Shown here piece after piece: positions 4,359-62,152 of a stretch of DNA of 64,000 nucleotides. The notes under the pieces were generated by a model that was not told the DNA's origin, searched no databases, and was given only the letters and a program-made list of their open reading frames with translations. Location: positions 9,561 to 73,560 of the forward strand of contig CAYHOS010000002.1 of assembly GCA_964358505.1 (NCBI GenBank), in the 5' to 3' direction. The position numbers and the translations under genes were made by a program. Source of the stretch: an uncultured Candidatus Peribacteria bacterium. GTDB taxonomy: Bacteria > Patescibacteriota > Gracilibacteria > Peribacterales > Peribacteraceae. Positions within the stretch are counted from its first letter, which is position 1, and each line of letters starts with the position of its first letter.

Positions 4359-5351
4359 TCACGAAGCGACTGTTGGGGTTTCGATGTACTTCTTATTCAG
4401 GTAAAAAGCGAGATAGCCGACGGCAATGAGGGCGAAACCGGCGAGCACCAAAGAGAGAGGCCAGCCCAGACCTTCCTTGAAGTACTCACTGGTGATTTTC
4501 AGGATATACAGCATGAGATAGAGGGAGCCGAAGACGAGGAACGATTTGCTCTTGAAATGGATACTGAGAAACATTGCCCCGAAGACCAGGCCGGGGAAAA
4601 TGAGTTCCCAGAAGTAATATTGCCGCGGAGACCACCCGCCAAGGGCAAGCGCCGCTCCCAGAAAACCAAAAATTCCCAATCCATACAAGAATCCCGTAAA
4701 TTCTTCTTTGTCGGAATGCTGGAAATAGTATCCAAGGCAGATGTAGGAAATTCCTGTCACCACAATACGGTAACAATAGAATCTCCACCTCTCAAACAAC
4801 GGATTCGGGCCAAGAAGATAGCTGGTGAAAGCGAAGAACAGCCATGTGGCAAAGAGAATAGTGAACAAGAGGAAGAGATTCTGGCGAAAGAGGAAGTAGG
4901 AGGCGAAAAACATGCCAGTAAGAATGAGGGAGATTACGACATTTGTTCCTGGAGAACTCGTTTCCCATCCCGCCTGATGGAGCGTCACAAAAAGACCAAG
5001 CGGCATCACTAAAGCGGAAATGAAGAAGAAGGCCTGCGCTACTTTCACGAGTCGTTCATCCCGCATGAACAACAGGCCGACGACGTACGCCGCAACACCG
5101 GAGCCAAGCGTCGTGAGAACCTTGGTGAAAACGTTGAAAACGCTCCAGTTCTGCTGAATGAGAATGGCAATGCCGAAAAAGACAATAGCCCCTCCGATGA
5201 AATACATGATCTCGGAGAGCGAAACGCTGTGTTTCGTAGCGTCGCCGGTTGTCGCAACGCCACTTTCATAAGCTCCAAGGACTTCCTGCTTGGTAAGCAC
5301 TTTGTCCTTCGCAAAGGCTGTAATTTGGTCGAGTAGTTCTTGTTTTTGCAT
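4359..5351 (-). CDS. polytopic membrane protein, function unknown
   Basis: 330-aa ORF with about 9 hydrophobic segments and visibly lower GC than its neighbours. Confidence 0.6.
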   Translation of the reverse strand: MQKQELLDQITAFAKDKVLTKQEVLGAYESGVATTGDATKHSVSLSEIMYFIGGAIVFFGIAILIQQNWSVFNVFTKVLTTLGSGVAAYVVGLLFMRDERLVKVAQAFFFISALVMPLGLFVTLHQAGWETSSPGTNVVISLILTGMFFASYFLFRQNLFLLFTILFATWLFFAFTSYLLGPNPLFERWRFYCYRIVVTGISYICLGYYFQHSDKEEFTGFLYGLGIFGFLGAALALGGWSPRQYYFWELIFPGLVFGAMFLSIHFKSKSFLVFGSLYLMLYILKITSEYFKEGLGWPLSLVLAGFALIAVGYLAFYLNKKYIETPTVAS

Positions 5352-6076: not shown

Positions 6077-6152
6077 TGGTGGGCGGCATAGGAGTTGAAC
6101 CTACGACCTTTCGGATGTGAACCGAACGCTCTAACCACTGAGCTAGCCGCCC
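6077..6152 (-). tRNA. tRNA-Val (anticodon CAC)
   Basis: Minus strand reads GGGCGGC-TA-GCTC-AGTGGTTA-GAGC-G-TTCGG-TTCACAT-CCGAA-AGGTC-GTAGG-TTCAACT-CCTAT-GCCGCCC-A-CCA. This is a full cloverleaf with encoded CCA. Confidence 0.9.
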
Positions 6153-14296: not shown

Positions 14297-14323
14297 TCTT
14301 GAAGCCCTTCACCATTCCACCCC

Positions 14324-15589
14324 ATGACCCATTTGCCCGCATTGCAGCAGACGGATCCCGAGATCCACGGCATGATCATCGGGGAAGAGCAGCGGGAATG
14401 GAACACCATCCGCCTCATCCCCTCTGAGAACTACGCATCCGATGCAGTCCTGGAGGCTTCGGGGAGCGTCCTCACGAACAAGTACTCGGAAGGCTACCCG
14501 GGGAAGCGGTACTACGAGGGACAGCAGTTCACGGATGCCATTGAGACGCTGGCTATTGAACGCGCCAAGAAGGCGTTCGGTATGGACCATGCGAACGTCC
14601 AGCCGTACTCCGGCAGCCCGGCGAACATGGCCGTGTACCACGCACTCCTGCAGCACGGGGACACCATCATGGGGCTCACGCTGCCCCATGGCGGCCACCT
14701 GACGCACGGCTGGAAAGTGAACTTCTCGGGGAAGACCTACCATTCGGTTCCCTACGAGCTGGATCCCAAGACGGAAACGCTCAATTACGAAGACCTCTGG
14801 AGGCAGGCGAAGGAAGCGAAGCCGAAACTCATCGTGGCAGGGTATACGGCGTACCCCCGCATCATCGATTTCGCCAAGTTCCGCGCCATCTGCGACGACG
14901 TGGGGGCGTACTTCCACGCCGACATCTCCCACATCACGGGATTGATCCTGGGCGGTGTCCACCCCAGCCCCTTCCCCGCGGCCGACACCGGCATCACCAC
15001 GTCCCACAAGACCCTCCGGGGGCCCCGCGGCGCCCTGATCGTCTGCAAAGCGCAGTACGCGCAGGCCGTGGACAGGGCGATCATGCCGGGCTTGCAGGGG
15101 GGGCCGCATAACCACACCACCGCGGCCATTGCCGTGGCATTCAAGGAAGCGGAGAAGCCGGAATTCAAGGCCTACGCGACGCAGATCGTGAAGAACGCCA
15201 AAGCGCTCGCCGAGCGGTTGAAGAGCCACGGCTTCCGCCTGGTTTCCGGCGGTACGGACAACCACCTCATCCTCTTCGAGACGACGAAGAGCAAGGGCAT
15301 CCCGGGGAAGGAAGCCGCCAAGGCCTTCGACAAGGCGGGGATCGAGACCAACTACAACACGATTCCTTTCGATGACAGTCCGCCGGCCAACCCGGCGGGC
15401 GTCCGCATCGGCACCCCCGCCGTCACGAGCCGCGGCATGAAGGAAGCGGAGATGGCGCAGATCGGTGACTGGATGAACGATGCAGTCGCCAACGCCAAGG
15501 ACGACAAGGTACTCGCGCGGATCAAGGGTGAAGTGACGGAGCTCTGCAAGGGCTTCCCCTGCCCGGGCATCCATCCGAGCGATTGGTAG
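14324..15589 (+). CDS. glyA: serine hydroxymethyltransferase
   Basis: 421 aa with LIPSENYAS, GYPGKRYYEG and TTSHKTLRGPRG (PLP-lysine region). Confidence 0.95.
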   Translation: MTHLPALQQTDPEIHGMIIGEEQREWNTIRLIPSENYASDAVLEASGSVLTNKYSEGYPGKRYYEGQQFTDAIETLAIERAKKAFGMDHANVQPYSGSPANMAVYHALLQHGDTIMGLTLPHGGHLTHGWKVNFSGKTYHSVPYELDPKTETLNYEDLWRQAKEAKPKLIVAGYTAYPRIIDFAKFRAICDDVGAYFHADISHITGLILGGVHPSPFPAADTGITTSHKTLRGPRGALIVCKAQYAQAVDRAIMPGLQGGPHNHTTAAIAVAFKEAEKPEFKAYATQIVKNAKALAERLKSHGFRLVSGGTDNHLILFETTKSKGIPGKEAAKAFDKAGIETNYNTIPFDDSPPANPAGVRIGTPAVTSRGMKEAEMAQIGDWMNDAVANAKDDKVLARIKGEVTELCKGFPCPGIHPSDW

Positions 15590-18405: not shown

Positions 18406-21096
18406 CTACATTTTCGCCGCCATCATCGTTTTGCTCGGTGGGGGCACGCCACCCGACTCGACTAATTTCTTCTCCAGATCGGAGAGGTTCTTCTGTTCTT
18501 CCACCGTCAACGTCTCCCCCACGAACTGCTTCTTGCGCAACGCATTGAACTCGTTCGTCCAAAGCTCCCTATCCCTCCACTTGCGGTACTGCGCCAGGCT
18601 CATCCCCTTCTTGCGGGCTTTCTTGAGCTCTTCCTCCTCCTTCTCCTTGGCCTTCCCCTCCGCCCTGGCCTGCGTCTTGGCCGCCTTGCCGGAGGCCAGC
18701 CATTTGGCGATCTTCTCCTCCACCACGGAAACGCGCTCGGTGTAGCGCTCCCGCGAGAGCTTGCGGATCACGTCCACGCGCTTGGGATCCTCCTCCGCTT
18801 CCGGAGGCGGCAGCGTGCTCACGGAGAAGGGCTTGCTTGGCACCCCGTGGATCATGAGGCGGAGGTAGGCGTGGTACTTGGGGAGGCTGAGGATGTCCTT
18901 GGGCAAGACGACTTCTTCGAACTGCTCGCTGAGCGGCTCGGCGTCGTCGGAGCCGATCTGGAAGCACAGGAGCGAGCCCACGTTGCCGAAAATGGCGTCC
19001 TTGAGGGTGGTGTTGTTCCTCTCGCCGAAGAGGAGCTGGTTCACGTATTGGTTGGCCATCGTCAAATTGAGGCGGTACTTCCGCGCCTCGGAGAGGATGG
19101 TGGCAAAGGACTCCGTGGCGAAGTTCTGGAACTCGTCCACGTAGAGGTAGAAATCCTTCCGATCGCTCTCGGGAACGTCCGCCCTGCTCATGGCGTCCAG
19201 CTGGAACTTGGTGACCATCATGGAGCCGAGGAAGGCGGCGTTATCCTCCCCCAGCTTCCCCTTGCTGAGGTTCATGAGGATGATCTTCCCCGTATCCATG
19301 GCGTGGCGGATATCCAGTGTGGAGGTGACCTGGCCCACGATGTTGCGGACGAGGGGCGTGGAGACGAGCTGCCCGATCTTGTTCTGGAGCGCCGCGATGG
19401 CCTCGGTGCGGTACTTCTCGGACCAGTTTGTATACTCGTCCTCCCAAAAGCTCTTCACCAGGTGGTTCGTGGTCCGCTCCAGGATCTTGGCCCGGAAGGG
19501 GTCGTCCACGAAGATGCGGAGGATCCCCAGCATGGAGTTGTTCTCGGCTTCGATGAGCGCAAGGAGCGCGTTGCGGAGGATGTACTCCATGCGGCCGGAG
19601 AAGGCTTCCGGCCACAGCTTCTTGAAGATGCTCATGAGGCCGGAGGCCACGAGCGCGTGCTGCTCGGGGTTAGGGCAGTTGAGCATGTTGAAGGAGACGG
19701 GGAACTCGCGGTCCGCGGGGTCGAAGAGGATCACGTCGTTCGTGCGGCTTGAGGGGATGCACCGCAGCGCCGCGTCCACCAGATCCCCGTGGGGATCGAT
19801 GACGGCAACCCCTTTCCCCGCAAGGATGTCCGAACGGATCATGTTCTCCAGGAGGACGGACTTGCCCATCCCCGTCTTCCCGATGATGTACATGTGGCGG
19901 CGGCGGTCATCCGTGCGGATGCCGAACTTCTTGCGTTCCCCGCGGAACACCGCCTCCCCAAGGACCGTGAGTTCAGGATCCGGTACGTCGCCGACGATGG
20001 GGAGATCCACGGGCGGCTCCGCCTTGCGGTATGCCACCCAGTCGAAATTAGGGGTTTTGACGAGGATATTGGGCACGTGCCAGAGGGTGGCAACCTCCTC
20101 CACCGAGAGGACATACGGCCGCTCGCGGAAGCCGTGGGGTAAGCTGGAGACGTTCCGCGTGGCCCCTTCTTGGAAGCCGTTGGACTGGGGGAGGGTGAAG
20201 GGGCGGAAGCTGGAGATGATCTCGTCCGCCTTCGCCTCCGCCTGGGCATGCGCCTCCGCGGGCGCCATCACGCTCACGCGGACGTTGGCGAGGAAGAGGA
20301 GCCGGTTCACCTTGTCCACGGCGGCCGTCTCCGCGTCCTCCCGCTCGTGGCTGCGCATGCTCACCCGGTGGTCCTCGTCCGCTTCCGCCGCGTGGGCATC
20401 TTCTTCCGTGAGCGTTGCCAATGCCATGGGATTGATGAACCAGGTGCGGAACCCTCCCATGACCATATCGAGCGGAAAGAGGAGGAGCCGCCGCCAGCCC
20501 CGGGCAAGGTGGACGGAGCAGAAGAGCTTGGCGTACCAGGGGAAGTGCTTGGGGAGCCCTTTGACGAGGAACGGGATGAACGCCAGCGCCCGACGGCGGA
20601 AGCGCGGCCCCAGCGGCTTGATGGCCACTTGGATGTGGCCGCGCATGCCCGCGGCGGGGTAGCGGACGAGGGAGGAGGCCATCCCCGCGATGGTGTCCAC
20701 GTGCTGCCGCGTCACGAGGTCGATGAACTGCGGATAGCGCTTGATGGGCTGCACTTCCGGCCCCGTGGGCAGCAGATCGCAGAAGACCGCTGTCTCCCCC
20801 TCTTGGGGATCCAGGAGCCCCGCGGGCACCTCTTCGATCTCCGCGTCGGGATACTGCGCGTAGAGCTGGCTCTCGATGAGGGCGGCGGCTTTGCGGCTGG
20901 AGCGGACGTAGAGCGAGATCTTCCCCTCGCTCACGCCCATTTCCAGGCATACCGTCCCGTCCGCTCCCTTGAGCGAGTGCACAGCCGAGAGCACGGCCTC
21001 CATCATCAGGGGGCCGCGCGCGGCGCTCAGCGTATCGTCCGGATCGGGAAGGGAGGGGCGGATTCTCAGGAGAACTTCTTTCGGGCGTGATGCCAT
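18406..21096 (-). CDS. VirD4/TraD-like (type IV coupling protein family) P-loop ATPase, orphan
   Basis: Walker A IIGKTGMGKSV, Walker B FYLYVDEFQNF, an N-terminal domain of about 390 aa of unknown function and a Lys/Glu-rich C-terminal tail. ATG 21096 is preceded by TATACT-acccattg. The ORF track start at 21174 is a TTG. Confidence 0.8.
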   Translation of the reverse strand: MASRPKEVLLRIRPSLPDPDDTLSAARGPLMMEAVLSAVHSLKGADGTVCLEMGVSEGKISLYVRSSRKAAALIESQLYAQYPDAEIEEVPAGLLDPQEGETAVFCDLLPTGPEVQPIKRYPQFIDLVTRQHVDTIAGMASSLVRYPAAGMRGHIQVAIKPLGPRFRRRALAFIPFLVKGLPKHFPWYAKLFCSVHLARGWRRLLLFPLDMVMGGFRTWFINPMALATLTEEDAHAAEADEDHRVSMRSHEREDAETAAVDKVNRLLFLANVRVSVMAPAEAHAQAEAKADEIISSFRPFTLPQSNGFQEGATRNVSSLPHGFRERPYVLSVEEVATLWHVPNILVKTPNFDWVAYRKAEPPVDLPIVGDVPDPELTVLGEAVFRGERKKFGIRTDDRRRHMYIIGKTGMGKSVLLENMIRSDILAGKGVAVIDPHGDLVDAALRCIPSSRTNDVILFDPADREFPVSFNMLNCPNPEQHALVASGLMSIFKKLWPEAFSGRMEYILRNALLALIEAENNSMLGILRIFVDDPFRAKILERTTNHLVKSFWEDEYTNWSEKYRTEAIAALQNKIGQLVSTPLVRNIVGQVTSTLDIRHAMDTGKIILMNLSKGKLGEDNAAFLGSMMVTKFQLDAMSRADVPESDRKDFYLYVDEFQNFATESFATILSEARKYRLNLTMANQYVNQLLFGERNNTTLKDAIFGNVGSLLCFQIGSDDAEPLSEQFEEVVLPKDILSLPKYHAYLRLMIHGVPSKPFSVSTLPPPEAEEDPKRVDVIRKLSRERYTERVSVVEEKIAKWLASGKAAKTQARAEGKAKEKEEEELKKARKKGMSLAQYRKWRDRELWTNEFNALRKKQFVGETLTVEEQKNLSDLEKKLVESGGVPPPSKTMMAAKM

Positions 21097-21116: not shown

Positions 21117-21209
21117 ACGGACTTCGGACATCGGACTTCGGGCTAGACACTAGGTGGCCAAAGACCGCCTTCAAGAAACTTCAACCGAAGTCCGAATGCC
21201 GAAGTCCGT
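21117..21209. repeat. inverted repeat of GAAGTCC-type heptamer words (family A)
   Basis: acggacttcggacatcggacttcgg (21117-21141) pairs with ccgaagtccgaatgccgaagtccgt (21185-21209). The arms are 25 nt and near-perfect, with a spacer of about 43 nt, between the hrcA stop and the ATPase promoter. Confidence 0.8.
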
Positions 21210-21210
21210 C

Positions 21211-21924
21211 TCACGCCGCCCGCCGCAGCATGTCCGCCACCAGTTCCAGCGCCACCGTGTTGTACGCGTAGTCCATGCGCAGCGGACCCAGGATCCCGAT
21301 GGCCCCCCCGTTCCCCCGCAGCCGGTACGCCGTGACCATCAGGCTGCAGCTCTGGAGCTGGGGGAGGATGTGGTCTTCGCCGATGTAGTAGCGCGTCTTC
21401 TCGTCCACGTCCACGATGTCCAGGAGGTCCGTGAGGCGCTTCTCCAGTATTTCGATGACGCCGGCGGCCAGCAGAGGATTCATTTGGAAATCGGGTTGGC
21501 GCAGCGCGTTGGCCAGGCCCATGAAGTACACGCCCGGCTTGTGGGGGACCGTGACGAAGGCGACGTTGGGGATCATGCTGGAGAGGAGCGCCACGGCTTC
21601 GTAGGCGTACTCCTGGTCCTTGCGCTGGAAGTACTGCTCCCGCAATCCATCGAATTTCTGGCGCACCTTCCGCTCCGTCGCCGTGGGCTCCATGAACTCC
21701 TTCACGAAGGCGCGGTAGCCCTTGGCGGTGGGGATGCGCCCGGCGCTGATGTGGGGCTGCTCCAGGTACCCCTCGTCCTCCAGCACGCCCATCTCCGTGC
21801 GGATCGTTGCGGAGGAAACGGCGAAGTCCCCGCATTCCAAGAGCTTCTTACTGCCTACCGGAAGCGCCGTGTGGATGAATTGGTCGATGATGGCCGCCAG
21901 AAGCCTGCTTTGCCGGTCATTCAT
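21211..21924 (-). CDS. hrcA: heat-inducible transcription repressor HrcA (short form, 237 aa)
   Basis: MNDRQSRLLAAIIDQFIHTALPVGSKKLLE...SSATIRTEMGVLEDEGYLEQPHISAGRIPT is the HrcA winged-helix N-terminus. A CIRCE element lies directly upstream. Confidence 0.85.
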   Translation of the reverse strand: MNDRQSRLLAAIIDQFIHTALPVGSKKLLECGDFAVSSATIRTEMGVLEDEGYLEQPHISAGRIPTAKGYRAFVKEFMEPTATERKVRQKFDGLREQYFQRKDQEYAYEAVALLSSMIPNVAFVTVPHKPGVYFMGLANALRQPDFQMNPLLAAGVIEILEKRLTDLLDIVDVDEKTRYYIGEDHILPQLQSCSLMVTAYRLRGNGGAIGILGPLRMDYAYNTVALELVADMLRRAA

Positions 21925-21933
21925 GCGGAAAGC

Positions 21934-21960
21934 GTAGCACTCCGCAGAGTGGAGTGCCAG
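21934..21960. promoter_or_regulatory. CIRCE operator
   Basis: gTAGCACTC-cgcagagtg-GAGTGCcag compared with the consensus TTAGCACTC-N9-GAGTGCTAA. It lies 10 nt upstream of the hrcA ATG. Confidence 0.8.
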
Positions 21961-21975
21961 CAAGGGGCGTCCTTC

Positions 21976-29831: not shown

Positions 29832-29870
29832 ACGTTTCTTCGTTGATTCGTTTATGGGTTTATTCGTATA
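29832..29870. repeat. CGTTTATT-type word repeat (family E)
   Basis: acgtttcttcgttgattcgtttatgggtttattcgtata uses the same words as the inverted arrays at 34591-34691. Confidence 0.6.
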
Positions 29871-29984
29871 TCATGTCCCTATGCTCTCCATCGTCGCCAC
29901 ACCCACCCTTCGGCTCGTCCGCCTTGGCGGACGCGCCCAGGGTGGGCTTCCCTGTTGCCCCTCTCCTCTCTAATCCTCACGTCT

Positions 29985-30728
29985 ATGTTATCGATAGTCG
30001 CAACGCCCATAGGCAACCTGGGTGATATCACTCTCCGCGCCATCGAGACGTTGAAACAGTGCGATGCGATCGTGTGTGAAGACACCCGCGTGACGGGGAA
30101 CCTCCTCAAGCAGTTGGACATCGCAGCGTGTCATGGTGAGCCCCGTCGAACCATGGCACGCGTATTCCCCCTCGACGGGGCTCGGGGTGACACGCCTCGC
30201 AAGCCTCTCCTCAGCTTCCACGGCCACAGCGATCCAGGAACAGTCGAACACATCCTTAATCTTCTCAAAGCGGGAAAGCACCTCGCGCTCGTTTCCGACG
30301 CCGGCACGCCGGGCATCAGCGACCCGGGATATGCGATTGTCAAACGCGCGCGGGAAGCAGGGGTGAAGATTGAAGCGGTGCCCGGGCCTTCCGCTTTCCT
30401 CGCCGCCCTCTCCGTCTCCGGCCTCCCCATCAACCACTTCGTGTATCTGGGGTTCCTCCCGCTCAAGAAGGGGCGGAAGACGCTCCTCGATTCGTTCAAG
30501 GAAGAAGAAAAGACGATCGTCTTCTACGAGTCCGTCCACCGTATCGGGAAGACATTGACGGAACTTGCGGACGCGCTGAAGGACCAACCGGAGCGTCCCG
30601 TGGCGATAGCGCGGGAACTGACGAAGCTTCACGAGGAAGTTGTGCACACAAATGTGTCCTCAATTCCCCAGGTCCTCCCCCGCCTCACGCAGAAAGGTGA
30701 GTTTGTGGTCATCATCGGCGCACGATAA
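29985..30728 (+). CDS. rsmI: 16S rRNA (cytidine1402-2'-O)-methyltransferase
   Basis: MLSIVATPIGNLGDITLRAIETL...CEDTRVTG...LVSDAGTPGISDPG. It contains an extra segment of about 26 aa (see repeat 30126-30198). Confidence 0.88.
   Translation: MLSIVATPIGNLGDITLRAIETLKQCDAIVCEDTRVTGNLLKQLDIAACHGEPRRTMARVFPLDGARGDTPRKPLLSFHGHSDPGTVEHILNLLKAGKHLALVSDAGTPGISDPGYAIVKRAREAGVKIEAVPGPSAFLAALSVSGLPINHFVYLGFLPLKKGRKTLLDSFKEEEKTIVFYESVHRIGKTLTELADALKDQPERPVAIARELTKLHEEVVHTNVSSIPQVLPRLTQKGEFVVIIGAR
30126..30198. mobile_element. double-hairpin repeat element inserted in frame inside rsmI (family F)
   Basis: gtgtcatggtgagccccgtcgaaccatggcac...ccccctcgacggggctcggggtgacacgcc aligns block for block with the reverse complement of the intergenic element at 57270-57347. 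Confidence 0.65.
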
Positions 30729-31110: not shown

Positions 31111-31138
31111 ATTCTTCATTCTTCATTTTTCATTTCAC
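31111..31138. repeat. CATTCTT-type heptamer array (family C)
   Basis: aattctt-cattctt-cattttt-catttca, between two minus-strand genes. Confidence 0.6.
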
Positions 31139-32461: not shown

Positions 32462-32520
32462 GTTTGTATGGTTATTATACCATGTTTTTGTGATTATTGG
32501 TAGTTGACCGGATCGTGAAA

Positions 32521-32613
32521 GAAACCGAGGTAACCGAGAAAGCCGAAGAAACCAAAGAATGACTGACGATCTCCCCCTAGGTTTCCTCGGTTTCATCGGA
32601 TTCCTTGGATTCC
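32521..32613. repeat. inverted arrays of a 9-nt word, GAAACCGAG / CTCGGTTTC (family B)
   Basis: Left: gaaaccgag-gtaaccgag-aaagccgaa-gaaaccaaa (32521-32556). Right: ggtttcctc-ggtttcatc-ggattcctt-ggattcc (32580-32613). Confidence 0.8.
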
Positions 32614-32670
32614 TTCCCCAAGCCCTTCAACAGCTTCCTCTCGCTCCGACGGATCTGCTACCCTCCCTCC

Positions 32671-34590: not shown

Positions 34591-34691
34591 CGAACGAGAA
34601 CGTTTATTGGTTTATTCGTTTCTTTGTTCTTGAGCACAGAACGTCTGCAGCACGAAGACGAATAAACGAATCAACCAATAAACGAGAAACG
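34591..34691. repeat. inverted arrays of 8-nt TTTATTSG words forming a long hairpin (family E)
   Basis: Left: tttattgg-tttattcg-tttctttg (34603-34626). Right: cgaataaacgaatcaaccaataaacg (34658-34683). Lies between pgi and trxA. Confidence 0.75.
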
Positions 34692-36083: not shown

Positions 36084-36159
36084 TGGTGGAGCATGCCGGA
36101 TTCGAACCGGCGACCTTCTGGTTGCAAACCAGACGCTCTACCAACTGAGCTAATGCCCC
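36084..36159 (-). tRNA. tRNA-Ala (anticodon UGC)
   Basis: GGGGCAT-TA-GCTC-AGTTGGTA-GAGC-G-TCTGG-TTTGCAA-CCAGA-AGGTC-GCCGG-TTCGAAT-CCGGC-ATGCTCC-A-CCA. The G3:U70 identity pair is present. Confidence 0.92.
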
Positions 36160-36874: not shown

Positions 36875-38047
36875 TCACGCCACAATCTCCCCCACTCTTC
36901 CTTCCTCCACCGCCTTCCGTATTTCCATCCCCACGCGTTCCCCCACGCTCATGGATTGGCCGTAGAGGTACCCGGAGTACGGGGTTGCCATGATTCCGGG
37001 GGAGCCGGGGATGCGGAGGCTGACGTCGAAGATCACGATGTCCTCCTTCCCCTCCTCCGCCACCACCGCCCCCTGCAGAGCGAACGGCCCGATGATCCCC
37101 TTGCCGGAAGGGTCGAGCTCCGGATGCTTGGCGTGGAGGTCCTGCGTGGCTTTGACGAACTTCTCCCCCAGGTCGAACGCCTTCTCCAGGAGCGACTCCT
37201 TGACGGTGCAGGCGATGTGCCCGGTTTCGATCATTTTCAGGTCCACGTGCGCCAGCGCTTTGGCCTGCTCCCTCGCCGTCATGCGGAGGAAGCCGTCCAG
37301 GTTCGTCTGCCGGCGCGTATCCGTGCCGAGCAGTTCCAGCTCCTTCGTGAGCGGCGAGTAGAAGAAGTTGAAGTTGACGGGCGCACCCACAACGAACTCC
37401 TCCAGGGGGGCCTGCCGCCACTTGGCCGTGACCTTCCCCTCTTTCTCCAGGCGGGACCCCTCCGCTTCCCATGAATGCCGGTCCTCCACGAGGAAGAACG
37501 CCCTCTCGTACCCCCGCTGCGCTTCGCTGGCCTTGACGAGGACGGGGCGGTCAATCTCCTCGGGCTTTGCGAAGATCGTGGGCGTGCGGATGCCGGCGTC
37601 CCTCAGGAGATGGTACTGGTTGTACGGTTGGTCACGCTCCTCCAGCTTGAGGAGCGTCCGCGACCCGAAGATCGGCACGTTGAACCCGTTCTCGACCTTC
37701 GAAAAATCATCGAAGTAGACCCAGAAGTAGCGGTTGTGGACGAAGATCGTACTCATCTCCCGCAGCTTCTTCTGGACATCGTCCCGCAAGACATCGGCAA
37801 ACTTCTCCACGAGAATCACCTCATCAATACAACCCTTGGAAATCCCTTCGTCCGAAGTCCGAGGTCCTAATTCCTTCGTCCTAAAGTACTCCGTATACGT
37901 CCTCTCCCTCCCCTTGCGCGCCACGCAGAGCGTCCTGAACCCCCACTGCCTGGCGCCGTGGCACACGTCCAGGGCGCTATGGCCGCCGAGGACGCCGATG
38001 GCGAGGTTCTGCAAATCGTAGCCGGAGAGGAGATCCTTTGTATTCAT
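36875..38047 (-). CDS. purP: PurP-like ATP-grasp enzyme (archaeal-type FAICAR synthetase family), paralog 1
   Basis: IGVLGGHSALDVCHGAR...PEEIDRPVLVK...EEFVVGAPVNFNFFYSP...GPFALQG. TACAAT-ctctcc-ATG at 38047. Confidence 0.85.
   Translation of the reverse strand: MNTKDLLSGYDLQNLAIGVLGGHSALDVCHGARQWGFRTLCVARKGRERTYTEYFRTKELGPRTSDEGISKGCIDEVILVEKFADVLRDDVQKKLREMSTIFVHNRYFWVYFDDFSKVENGFNVPIFGSRTLLKLEERDQPYNQYHLLRDAGIRTPTIFAKPEEIDRPVLVKASEAQRGYERAFFLVEDRHSWEAEGSRLEKEGKVTAKWRQAPLEEFVVGAPVNFNFFYSPLTKELELLGTDTRRQTNLDGFLRMTAREQAKALAHVDLKMIETGHIACTVKESLLEKAFDLGEKFVKATQDLHAKHPELDPSGKGIIGPFALQGAVVAEEGKEDIVIFDVSLRIPGSPGIMATPYSGYLYGQSMSVGERVGMEIRKAVEEGRVGEIVA
37852..37874. repeat. family-A heptamer repeat embedded in frame in purP1
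   Basis: ccgaagtcc-gaggtcc-taattcc compared with ccgaagtcc-gaagtcc-taagtcc at 56184-56206. It encodes KELGPRTSDEG, which the adjacent paralog lacks. Confidence 0.65.
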
Positions 38048-38108
38048 GGAGAGATTGTAATGCAAAATGGATAATGAAGAACGCAAAAAGTGAGGAGCTC
38101 GATCGCCC

Positions 38109-39167
38109 CTATCCCAAGATCTCCCTGAGCCTCCCCTTCTCTATCGCCTGCTTGATGTCCCGCGCGATGCGCCTTCCCGTACTCATGGGAACGTCATACT
38201 TGAGCGCCGTATAGGGTGACCCTTCGATGAAGGGATTGGTGCCGGCCACGATGCGGGCGGAGATTTCGAACACGTAGATCTCCAGCTTGCGCGTGATGAT
38301 GGCCTCCAGGCAGAAGGGGCCGTAGAGGCCTTTGCCCGCGCCCTTGAGCGTCTTGCTTACCTTCACCACCTTCTCCCCCATCCGGAAGAGCTGCGGCAGT
38401 AGGGATTCGCGGACGACCACGGGGATGTTGCCCACGATGGTGTACGACGTATGGATGTTGGCGGCCAATTGGTCTTCCGCGCGTATGCGCCCGATGGAGT
38501 CGGCGTTGCTCTCGTACCGCTTGTCCATGCTCATGATCTCCAGTTCCCTGGTGATCGGGGAATAGAAGTAGTGGACGTAGAGCGGCGCCCCCACGATGTA
38601 CTCCTGGATCACGAAATCGTTCTCCTCGGGGTACTTGCGGTTCTTCACCTCATAGAACTGCTCCGCGGACTTGACCACGAAGTACCCGAACCCCCCGCCC
38701 GCGCCGTGGAACTTGATGATGACGGGGCGGTCGATCTCCTCCGGTTTCTCGAACACCTTGGGGAGCAAAAGCCCGGACTTGAGCAGCCACTCGCGCTCCA
38801 TGTCCCGGTCGCTCTCCCACTCCAGGATCTCCTTGGCGCCGTAGTACAGGGCGCGCATCTTCTTCACGCGCTCGTGGCCGAGGTACGCGATGAAGGAGCC
38901 GTGCGGGATGAGGATGGCCTTGCGCTTGATCAGTTCCTTCTCCAGCCCTTCGTCCCATTCGCTCCAGTCCTCCACGGTGATGACCTCGTCGGCCACGGGG
39001 AAGCGCTTGTAGATCCGCTCCGTCCCCTTCTTGCAGATGACGAGGTTGCGCATCCCCTCGTCCCGCGCCCCCTTGAGGATCTGCAGCGCCGAATGGCTGC
39101 CCATGGTGGCAATGACGAAGTTTTCGGGGTTTTTGGTAGCCGGTATCTTGAAAGACGGGCGCGGCAT
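38109..39167 (-). CDS. purP: PurP-like ATP-grasp enzyme, paralog 2
   Basis: IATMGSHSALQILKGARDEG...PEEIDRPVIIKFHGAGGGFGYF...QEYIVGAPLYVHYFYSP...GPFCLEA. Confidence 0.85.
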   Translation of the reverse strand: MPRPSFKIPATKNPENFVIATMGSHSALQILKGARDEGMRNLVICKKGTERIYKRFPVADEVITVEDWSEWDEGLEKELIKRKAILIPHGSFIAYLGHERVKKMRALYYGAKEILEWESDRDMEREWLLKSGLLLPKVFEKPEEIDRPVIIKFHGAGGGFGYFVVKSAEQFYEVKNRKYPEENDFVIQEYIVGAPLYVHYFYSPITRELEIMSMDKRYESNADSIGRIRAEDQLAANIHTSYTIVGNIPVVVRESLLPQLFRMGEKVVKVSKTLKGAGKGLYGPFCLEAIITRKLEIYVFEISARIVAGTNPFIEGSPYTALKYDVPMSTGRRIARDIKQAIEKGRLREILG

Positions 39168-39226: not shown

Positions 39227-39300
39227 GGCCAAAGAAACTGTAGAATCCAAGGATAGAAACCTCCTTGGTTTCTTCGGATTCCTCGGTTTCTTCGGATTCC
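39227..39300. repeat. inverted arrays of the 9-nt GGWTTCNTC word (family B, second locus)
   Basis: Right arm ggtttcttc-ggattcctc-ggtttcttc-ggattcc (39267-39300) matches 32580-32613 at 28 of 34 positions. The left arm contains gaatccaagg...gaaacc. Confidence 0.8.
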
Positions 39301-40779: not shown

Positions 40780-40854
40780 CGGTGCCGTAGCCAAGGAGTA
40801 AGGCAGGGGTCTGCAAAACCCCCATACGTGGGTGCAATTCCCACCGGCACCTCC
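40780..40854 (+). tRNA. tRNA-Cys (anticodon GCA), atypical T-loop
   Basis: GGTGCCG-TA-GCC-AAGGAGTAA-GGC-A-GGGGT-CTGCAAA-ACCCC-CATAC-GTGGG-TGCAATT-CCCAC-CGGCACC-T-CCA. The U73 discriminator fits Cys. The T-loop has G where U55 is expected. Confidence 0.8.
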
Positions 40855-56160: not shown

Positions 56161-56185
56161 GCAACTTCCCCATCCTCTCATTCCC

Positions 56186-56226
56186 GAAGTCCGAAGTCCT
56201 AAGTCCTAATCCCCAATCCCTAACCC
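56186..56226 (+). repeat. six-unit heptamer array abutting the rplJ start codon (family A)
   Basis: GAAGTCC-GAAGTCC-TAAGTCC-TAATCCC-CAATCCC-TAACCC, then ATG 56227. Confidence 0.85.
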
Positions 56227-56766
56227 ATGGCCCTCACCAGAGACCAAAAGGCAGCCCAGCTCACGGACCTCAAGGACAAGCTCTCCAAGTCCCAATCCGT
56301 CATCTTCACCCACTACATCGGCCTCACCGTGGCCGAGGCGAGCGACCTGCGCAAGAAGCTCAAGGACGCCGGCGCGGAGATGAAGGTGGCCAAGAAGACG
56401 CTCATGGCGATCGCCGCCAAGGAACAGTGTTTACCGGAACTGCCGGCAACGATGATGGCCGGCCCCGTGGCATGCATCTTCAGCTACAGAGACCCCCTCA
56501 CGGGAGCGCAGGTTGCCTTTTCGTACGCCAAGGACCACCCGCAGGTGGCGTTCGTGGGCGGCTTGTTCGAAGGGAAACTCCTCTCCCAATCCGACGCCAC
56601 CACGCTGGCCAGGATCCCCGGCCGCCAGGTGCTGCTGGCGCAGTTCGCGGGCATGATCCGCTCCCCGCTCGTCTCGTTCGCGAGCATGTGCTCCTCTCCC
56701 CTCTCCGGCTTCGCCCGCGCCCTCTCCGAGAAGGCGAAGAAGATGGCCCCCACCCCAACCGCCTAA
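56227..56766 (+). CDS. rplJ: 50S ribosomal protein L10
   Basis: MALTRDQKAAQLTDLKDKLSKSQSVIFTHYIGLTVAEASDLRKKL... Confidence 0.93.
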   Translation: MALTRDQKAAQLTDLKDKLSKSQSVIFTHYIGLTVAEASDLRKKLKDAGAEMKVAKKTLMAIAAKEQCLPELPATMMAGPVACIFSYRDPLTGAQVAFSYAKDHPQVAFVGGLFEGKLLSQSDATTLARIPGRQVLLAQFAGMIRSPLVSFASMCSSPLSGFARALSEKAKKMAPTPTA

Positions 56767-56770
56767 CCTG

Positions 56771-56819
56771 TCATCCTTCATTCTACATTCTTCATTCTAC
56801 ATTCTTCATTCCCCCTCCC
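56771..56819 (+). repeat. seven-unit heptamer array upstream of rplL (family C)
   Basis: TCATCCT-TCATTCT-ACATTCT-TCATTCT-ACATTCT-TCATTCC-CCCTCCC, then catc and ATG 56824. Confidence 0.85.
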
Positions 56820-59306: not shown

Positions 59307-59349
<43 letters not shown>

Positions 59350-62065: not shown

Positions 62066-62077
62066 GGGACGAAAGAA

Positions 62078-62152
62078 CCAAGTACCAATGACCAATGACC
62101 AATCTTCGCAAGACGAATGACGGTGGTCATTGGATATTGGTCATTGGTCATT
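62078..62152. repeat. inverted heptamer arrays CCAATGA / GGTCATT forming a hairpin between convergent genes (family D)
   Basis: Left: CCAAGTA-CCAATGA-CCAATGA-CCAATCT (62078-62105). Right: GGTCATT-GGATATT-GGTCATT-GGTCATT (62125-62152), then tt. Confidence 0.85.

Follow-up and report, generated by a model that had tools for sequence, protein, structure and literature searches.

How does a repeat that otherwise lies between genes come to be translated within a conserved enzyme? The question is raised by a 64,000-nucleotide stretch of an uncultured Candidatus Peribacteria bacterium (assembly GCA_964358505.1, contig CAYHOS010000002.1, positions 9,561 to 73,560 of the forward strand), which we call the window. 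The gene concerned encodes PurP1 (36875-38047, minus strand; 390 amino acids, frame intact). An initial annotation, made from the letters of the window alone, had reported a 23-nucleotide heptamer repeat in frame within this gene and proposed that it belongs to a family otherwise found between genes. Here, we argue that the PurP1 insert is probably a decaying, tolerated, in-frame copy of a heptamer-array family of its own genome, situated in a loop that is a hot spot for such arrays across the clade.

By sequence and modelled fold, PurP1 is an ATP-grasp protein of the FAICAR synthetase family. FAICAR synthetase carries out the formate- and ATP-dependent formylation of 5-aminoimidazole-4-carboxamide ribonucleotide (AICAR), an activity that is predicted for PurP1. 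The protein matches Pfam families PF06849 (117 bits) and PF06973 (176 bits), both above the curated cut-off, and the FAICAR synthetase of Methanocaldococcus jannaschii (PDB 2R7K) with E = 5.8e-57. Directly upstream lies a tandem paralog, PurP2 (38109-39167, minus strand; 352 amino acids), which has the same two Pfam families, shares 31% identity with PurP1 (BLASTP) and does not carry the loop insert. The BLASTP alignment opens a 17-residue gap in PurP2 opposite FRTKELGPRTSDEGISKG of PurP1, and archaeal PurP 2R7K has the same gap, the insert segment being absent. The 120 best homologs of PurP1 are 67-81% identical to it, and several of them are named by source as Candidatus Peribacteraceae or Peregrinibacteria, in keeping with a Peribacteraceae host for the window.

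The plus-strand letters at 37852-37874 are ccgaagtccgaggtcctaattcc. Read on the minus strand they encode ELGPRTSD, inside the segment ...YF-RTKELGPRTSDEGISK-GCIDEV of PurP1, which bears out the reported in-frame position. The 23-mer is nevertheless only the core of the repeat. The full tract is a degenerate heptanucleotide array on the minus strand (37841-37884), about 165-210 nt into the coding sequence, with six sense-strand units: AGGACGA, AGGAATT, AGGACCT, CGGACTT, CGGACGA and AGGGATT. It encodes most of a loop formed by residues 56-71 (RTKELGPRTSDEGISK; codons 37835-37882). Tandem Repeats Finder describes the tract as 3.1 copies of period 14, and a 16-nt direct repeat recurs within it at a spacing of 28 nt, or four times seven. 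Adjacent units are never identical, and the tract is therefore not a perfect, uninterrupted one. It shows 21 of 37 possible lag-7 matches, a level reached by 14 regions of the window and by 2.4 in shuffled sequence. Taken alone, this periodicity is modest, and the decisive support for an array is consequently comparative. No inverted partner or local hairpin of the array was found within 37500-38200. The same lag-7 analysis picks out degenerate 7-nt periodicity in the leader between PurP2 and PurP1 (38058-38102, minus strand), a spacer that in many relatives holds strong heptamer arrays or inverted array pairs (loci L003, L013, L049, L066, L067 and L072).

Within the window, the core has close kin. 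With up to three mismatches, the 23-mer has three further matches, against 0.00 expected from shuffles: 56184-56206 (two mismatches, 21 of 23 positions identical), 56191-56213, and 21119-21141 on the minus strand. The two-unit pattern GARGTCCKARKTCC, with one mismatch allowed, occurs seven times, against 0.36 expected. Chance is thus rejected as the source of these matches, which fall where the initial annotation had placed related words: at 56184-56213 and in the inverted repeat containing 21185-21209. At the first site, a plus-strand intergenic array of the same family as the PurP1 tract (CCGAAGTCC GAAGTCC TAAGTCC TAATCCC CAATCCC; 56184-56220) stops 8 nt short of an ATG at 56228, putatively labelled the start of rplJ in that annotation; no obvious Shine-Dalgarno sequence lies between the two. 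At the second site, the family builds an intergenic hairpin. One arm, CGGACTT CGGACAT CGGACTT CGG, is on the minus strand at 21118-21141, and the complementary arm, CCGAAGTCC GAATGCC GAAGTCC G, is on the plus strand at 21185-21209, ending 2 nt before the stop end (21211) of a conserved minus-strand open reading frame (ORF; 21211-21963). Folded as minus-strand RNA, the segment 21105-21220, between two minus-strand genes, has a minimum free energy of -57.6 kcal/mol (z = -5.8). Hairpins built of arrays with other units occur in many related genomes. The sense-strand orientation of the unit differs among its sites, being GGACTTC in the PurP1 loop and GAAGTCC in the leader at 56184-56220. Overall, the window holds eight strong arrays of period 7, compared with 0-3 for each other period from 4 to 12.

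To place the insert among its relatives, we used an alignment of 120 homologs and the DNA around PurP1 from 80 Peribacteria species plus seven further contigs, with about 20 kb of sequence per related genome. PurP2 lies beside PurP1 in every case, and its orthologs are constant in length (350-351 amino acids). In 78 Peribacteria PurP1 sequences, by comparison, the loop between ...TY..YF and GC(I/V)D spans 6 to about 31 residues. A short, 6-residue, KTRGEK-like loop is present in about half of the species, and even this short form is longer than the loop of PurP2 and archaeal PurP. The earlier count of about 17 extra residues thus holds relative to PurP2; relative to the 6-residue loop of many orthologs, the window insert is about 10 residues. 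Absent from PurP2, archaeal PurP and half of the Peribacteria orthologs, the insert is not a conserved feature of PurP. This variability, together with the significance of the nucleotide matches, supports the proposal that an intergenic repeat family occurs in frame inside the enzyme.

In many species with a longer loop, the insert is 20-85 nt of tandem 7-nt units, and at least 12 unrelated units are used across the relatives, some in perfect arrays. Several relatives carry the unit of the window or units close to it: perfect arrays of that unit, namely (CGGACTT)x4 in L011, about 4.7 units long, and (CGGACYT)x11 in L081 (from SRR31966181); (CGGACTT)x3 plus (GCGAAGC)x3 in L083; (CGGACAG)x4 in L005; and AGGACNN units in L025, L046, L085 and L087. 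The presence of CGGACTT arrays at the same loop suggests that the window tract is a worn version of them. Others carry quite different units, namely (GTGGAAA)x4 (L016), (CAAAGCT)x4 (L009), (AGTCACA)x4 (L066), CAGGTCA (L072), CAAATCC/CAAGTCC (L003), AATTCCA/AAAACCA (L010), AAGCGGT (L082) and TGAAAAT (L008). Copy number extends from 4.7 in L011 through about 6 in the window to 11 in L081, and the inserts do not come in multiples of 21 nt. At the protein level they consistently give hydrophilic or charged peptides, and the PurP1 frame is intact in all 81 consensus sequences (80 genomes and the window). Apparent splits or frameshifts of PurP1 in L067 and five other loci were rejected: the odd tblastn spans there combine PurP2 with PurP1, and all of these genes are intact.

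The loop also holds DNA of other kinds. A GC-rich segment, GGGGCCYGCCCCGCGRAGC, encoding GPAPRS, adjoins or replaces heptamer arrays in the loops of L083 (703-721) and L086 (5187-5206), and may be a second small element that uses this site. In L071 (6768-6836) and L049 (10166-10258), the loop array is split by an unrelated segment of 24-36 nt, a pattern of nested insertions.

The loop arrays appear to have been gained many times and to turn over quickly. In a neighbour-joining tree of PurP1, built with the loop masked, short loops turn up on all major branches, interleaved with loops that carry arrays of unrelated units. Proteins that are about 95% identical outside the loop can have unrelated loops, or none. 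P0010 and P0011 have loops of equal length built from AAGCGGT and CAAATCC respectively, and P0024 and P0036 carry arrays while their close relative P0065 has the 6-residue loop. Interleaving in the tree and unlike loops in such close proteins both point to many independent gains and fast turnover. At the finest scale, among consensus sequences of proteins at least 98.9% identical, the loop differs by point changes and shows no differences in copy number.

The arrays are concentrated at this site. We surveyed 1.27 Mb, comprising 80 loci from 80 species and the window, and found 104 strong arrays of period 7, followed by 29, 22, 12, 9, 5 and 3 of periods 9, 8, 12, 6, 4 and 10; periods 8 and 9 are thus the next commonest in the clade. 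Most period-7 arrays are intergenic (83 of 104); for 72, a start or stop is no more than 80 nt away, and for 43, an inverted partner occurs at up to 130 nt. Inside conserved ORFs, 17 of 21 strong arrays fall in PurP1 (the array of L042 counted among them), which makes up 9.5% of the conserved coding DNA. Within the protein, this loop has extra residues in 40 of 78 sequences, while at other sites extra residues occur in at most three sequences, except for an indel of a single residue, present in 12. Heptamer arrays thus have a clade-wide hot spot in the PurP1 loop. A second PurP1 site, near residue 160 in window numbering, holds (AGCGGTC)x4 in L015 (1882-1912) and L018 (636-666), where it encodes ERSAVSGQRS and is common to these two sister species; L018 also has an intergenic array of the AGCGGTC unit (4938-4959). 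Across the 80 loci, the only clear strong heptamer array deep in a conserved ORF other than PurP1 is in L058 (3492-3526), in an ORF of about 845 codons; its unit, ACGCCCT, is found also in two upstream arrays (14298-14329 and 20016-20077).

Do loop arrays share their units with arrays elsewhere in the same genome? We searched for two-unit loop words, with one mismatch, on both strands and in all rotations, comparing 27 loop-bearing loci with all loci. This 14-mer test was used because the longest exact common substring between a loop and the rest of its locus was not discriminating. The count excludes the window, and the removal of one self-match, the L042 loop itself, reduced it from 16 to 15. 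The resulting 15 sites outside PurP1 in the loop's own locus compare with 1.64 expected from other species, and they are spread over 8 of 26 loci. Most are inverted array pairs between genes, at 12340-12425 in L046, 15185-15260 and 17260-17330 in L003, 17235-17305 in L010, and 14010-14075 in L042; the window counterpart is the pair 21118-21141 and 21185-21209. In L003, a 25-mer of the loop matches the arm of an intergenic hairpin 5 kb away at 24 of 25 positions, and in L046, a 20-mer of the loop has an exact match in an intergenic hairpin arm 2.2 kb away. At comparable stringency, these two words have essentially no matches in the other 86 loci. Because loop and intergenic copies have their unit variants in the same order in the window, L003 and L046, the pattern indicates that DNA has been copied between sites, and not only generated by independent slippage. 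Loop units foreign to the native codons (CAAATCC, AATTCCA, AATGCAA and AGCGGTC) are found in the intergenic arrays of their own genomes. In the window lineage, the arrays start precisely at the native Arg-Thr codons (A/C)GGACG, whose GGAC core is present in every unit, which makes local seeding also plausible in that lineage.

Structural modelling shows where the protein accommodates the insert, a step that the initial annotation had suggested. An AlphaFold2 model of PurP1, built from 45 orthologs, has a mean predicted local distance difference test (pLDDT) score of 80.6 and a predicted template modelling (pTM) score of 0.81, and matches PurP 2R7L with template modelling scores of 0.78 and 0.85 (E = 1.8e-31). 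The insert is placed in the N-terminal domain, between helix 49-54 and strand 76-80. Confidence is low there: residues 61-70 average a pLDDT of 51, and residues 63-66 fall below 50. The model is consistent with a tolerated, disordered surface loop. Judged by this predicted structure and by the variability of the loop, the insert would be neutral for PurP1.

We propose the following account. Peribacteria genomes are rich in short arrays of 7-nt units that are largely genome-specific, present either as single tracts just upstream of start codons or as inverted pairs that form intergenic hairpins; in the window, the family unit is GGACTTC/GAAGTCC. Part of the loop arrays may arise by slippage in place, starting from the native Arg-Thr codons (A/C)GGACG, and part by ectopic copying from arrays of the same genome, through template switching, gene conversion or some mobilising activity. 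Of the arrays that reach the loop, only those that are in frame, free of stops and encode a hydrophilic peptide would survive. Survivors would then expand, contract and decay by point mutation, and the window copy would be such a decayed tract, no longer prone to slippage. Ectopic copying is put forward here as a candidate contributor.

Several considerations weigh against this account. Eighteen of 26 genomes have no second copy of the loop unit in their samples of about 20 kb, and the same-genome test treats sites as independent, without correction for base composition. Units of the form (A/C)GGACNN could come from native AGGACGA by slippage, so that the direction of copying in the window is ambiguous. 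The recurrent gains are read from a tree without support values, the neutrality of the insert is judged from variability and a predicted structure, and the mechanism of array spread is one that we infer. Nor does the account give any reason why the hot spot should be at the PurP1 loop in particular.

The rival explanations that we considered are less well supported. The array might have grown in situ by slippage from native Arg-Thr-Arg/Lys codons, with no copying between sites, and its likeness to intergenic arrays might merely reflect a replication machinery that favours 7-nt slippage and certain units. Polymerase-linked 7-nt slippage has been proposed by Mrazek and colleagues (summarised in PMC4679880), and the shared GGAC core and starting point of the window-lineage arrays agree with such an origin. 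However, it does not explain why units unrelated to the native codons recur in intergenic arrays of their own genomes, nor why loop and intergenic copies have a common order of variants (21 of 23 positions in the window, 24 of 25 in L003 and 20 of 20 in L046), and simple in-frame slippage should yield inserts in multiples of 21 nt. We consider a purely local origin unlikely. A more doubtful proposal is that the arrays act as RNA or DNA, by binding a factor specific to the genome, be it a protein or the transcript of a complementary array, such that the intragenic copy would place PurP1 under control common to the leader and hairpin arrays. The loop unit is indeed the unit of the genome's own leader and hairpin arrays, intergenic arrays are concentrated no more than 80 nt from starts and stops, and the TAACTGA heptamers of Beggiatoaceae have been suggested to bind a regulator (PMC4679880). 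Yet half of the species have no loop array, the window copy is decayed, the loop and the leader at 56184-56220 present the unit to their genes in different orientations, and the factor is purely hypothetical; regulation of this kind seems improbable.

It is more improbable still that the tract is a contingency locus, in which adding or losing one 7-nt unit switches PurP1 between on and off, with PurP2 as a back-up. Such a role would suit a unit length that is not a multiple of three, the long perfect tracts of some species (11 units in L081, four in several others) and a paralog that is always adjacent. It is difficult to reconcile with a degenerate window tract, with intact frames throughout, with proteins of 98.9-100% identity whose loops differ by point changes and not by copy number, and with the half of species that have no tract at all. 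Least credible is that the extra residues serve PurP1, perhaps by forming a flexible lid or a surface for interactions. The hydrophilic or charged peptides, and the length of even the short PurP1 loop relative to PurP2 and archaeal PurP, would fit an adaptive feature. Against it, loops of close relatives are unrelated in sequence and length, many orthologs have no insert, and the loop is modelled with low confidence, while survival filtering of any stop-free heptamer array would be expected to yield the same hydrophilic bias. We therefore favour a decaying copy of the genome's own array family, a reading that builds on the array itself, its family relations, the hot spot, the sharing of units within genomes and the disorder of the modelled loop.

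The window contains further repeats besides this family. Other heptamer arrays lie at 56771-56811 (CATTCTW), 59307-59344 (ATTTTYC), 62073-62103 and 62129-62152 (GACCAAT with its inverted partner ATTGGTC) and 31111-31135 (ATTCTTC). By rotation, the ATTGGTC unit at 62124-62152 is TTGGTCA, the unit of the cyanobacterial short tandemly repeated repetitive (STRR) sequence STRR2. Spacers of the window also hold octamer arrays (CGTTTATT and its complement ACGAATAA) and nonamer arrays (AAAGAAACC, TTCCTCGGA and TTCTTCGGA), at 29833-29871, 34601-34628, 34658-34685, 32518-32615 and 39262-39300, one of them some 95 nt upstream of PurP2. Scanned against Rfam at gathering thresholds, the window yielded only three tRNAs (6080-6152, 36087-36159 and 40781-40852), and no known structured RNA under the arrays. 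The initial annotation had cited rsmI as a prior case of an intergenic repeat family appearing in frame inside an enzyme. As a case of the heptamer family it does not hold: the inserts of this rsmI-like gene are GC-rich palindromes and not heptamer arrays. On the plus strand, the first eight codons of the rsmI-like gene (MLSIVATP) are doubled, at 29881-29904 and 29986-30009, and the two copies flank about 80 nt that include the GC-rich palindrome CCCACCCT...AGGGTGGG. Later in the same coding sequence, at 30138-30183, comes an in-frame inverted repeat with perfect 12-bp arms, GAGCCCCGTCGA-N22-TCGACGGGGCTC.

Bacterial heptameric repeats were first noticed decades ago, and their origin and role are still to be settled. 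An excess of heptameric simple sequence repeats (SSRs), placed between genes near starts and stops, with a preference for about four units and some inverted pairs, is documented in Nostoc, with GGGGA(C/T)T, and in Xanthomonas, with GGGAATC (PMC4692102), and likewise for the TAACTGA heptamers of Beggiatoaceae and cyanobacteria (PMC4679880). The Peribacteria arrays resemble these and the cyanobacterial STRR sequences in the over-representation of tandem 7-nt units relative to other periods, in their mostly intergenic position near start and stop codons, often with about four units and sometimes as inverted pairs, and in their occasional copies within ORFs. Nostoc GGGGATT is even the antisense of AATCCCC in the window leader at 56184-56220. 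There are also differences. Long SSRs have been linked mainly to large genomes (PMC4692102), whereas the host here is a small-genome bacterium of the candidate phyla radiation (CPR). The Peribacteria units are many and largely genome-specific, with no single dominant unit, and most are unable to form G-quadruplexes. Further, dozens of species have such arrays in frame at one and the same loop of a conserved enzyme.

Comparison with other repeat classes is similarly mixed. Rickettsia palindromic elements (RPEs) are selfish repeats inserted in frame into protein-coding housekeeping genes (reviewed in PMC10969869). Like RPEs and transposable elements of the miniature inverted-repeat type (MITEs), the heptamer family is dispersed, with both intergenic and in-frame intragenic copies; as with RPEs, these occur in unrelated housekeeping enzymes, adding a peptide segment where the fold allows, apparently without destroying function. 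RPEs, however, are palindromes of about 100-150 bp with a conserved peptide, whereas the PurP1 insert is 20-85 nt of heptamers, without the palindrome or terminal inverted repeats of RPEs and MITEs; its peptide differs in every genome, and a single site has been used again and again. Between genes, family members take the form of short, genome-specific inverted doublets that fold into hairpins, as do repetitive extragenic palindromic (REP) sequences and their REPIN doublets (PMC3116915), but their arms are internally periodic heptamer arrays, and the PurP1 copy is a single arm rather than a doublet. Phase-variable contingency loci likewise contain intragenic tandem repeats with a unit that is not a multiple of three. 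The PurP1 locus departs from them in the degeneracy of the window tract, in the lack of out-of-frame alleles among the 81 consensus sequences, and in its product, a cytosolic biosynthetic enzyme and not a surface or restriction-modification protein. Within the literature library searched, nothing relevant was found on Peribacteria repeats, the GGACTTC-type unit or its peptides.

In-frame heptamer arrays are not confined to Peribacteria. Scanning metagenome contigs for exact (GGACTTC)3 retrieved at least 120 contigs, of which 80 were analysed; their GC content ranges from 0.37 to 0.70. In 26 of these 80, the array lies well inside an open frame of at least 300 codons. Four Pfam-checked contigs carry (GGACTTC)n in frame in DNA polymerase I (PolA, twice), a GT1 glycosyltransferase, LpxB and IspG/GcpE, and the array also occurs inside ORFs resembling UvrA, UvrD and a Ser/Thr kinase with WD40 repeats. 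These cases come from the metagenome loci L165 (1394-1414 and 1741-1761), L164, L137, L111, L159, L127 and L143 (GC 0.37-0.63). The presence of LpxB and the GC range suggest that the contigs lie outside the CPR. We speculate, tentatively, that heptamer arrays are a so far unrecognised class of self-propagating DNA operating across phyla, and not mere products of slippage. In that case, each genome would keep its own unit family, and a copying mechanism would place arrays at leaders, in hairpins between genes and at favoured sites inside genes, the PurP1 loop among them. If true, the arrays in PolA, LpxB, IspG and glycosyltransferases of unrelated uncultured bacteria would be traces of this process in other phyla.

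What makes the PurP1 loop interesting is mainly its comparative pattern, through which the origin of heptamer arrays becomes open to test. The loop is a natural experiment in which one enzyme loop has been colonised repeatedly in dozens of small-genome CPR species, each loop array carrying the species' own unit, while close sister species keep an empty site. Through this loop it can be tested whether arrays are copied between sites or born locally, how rapidly they turn over, and how repeat DNA becomes new protein sequence. There is also a practical side: where CPR proteins vary in length or contain low-complexity segments, the cause can be a repeat insertion and not an error of annotation or assembly.

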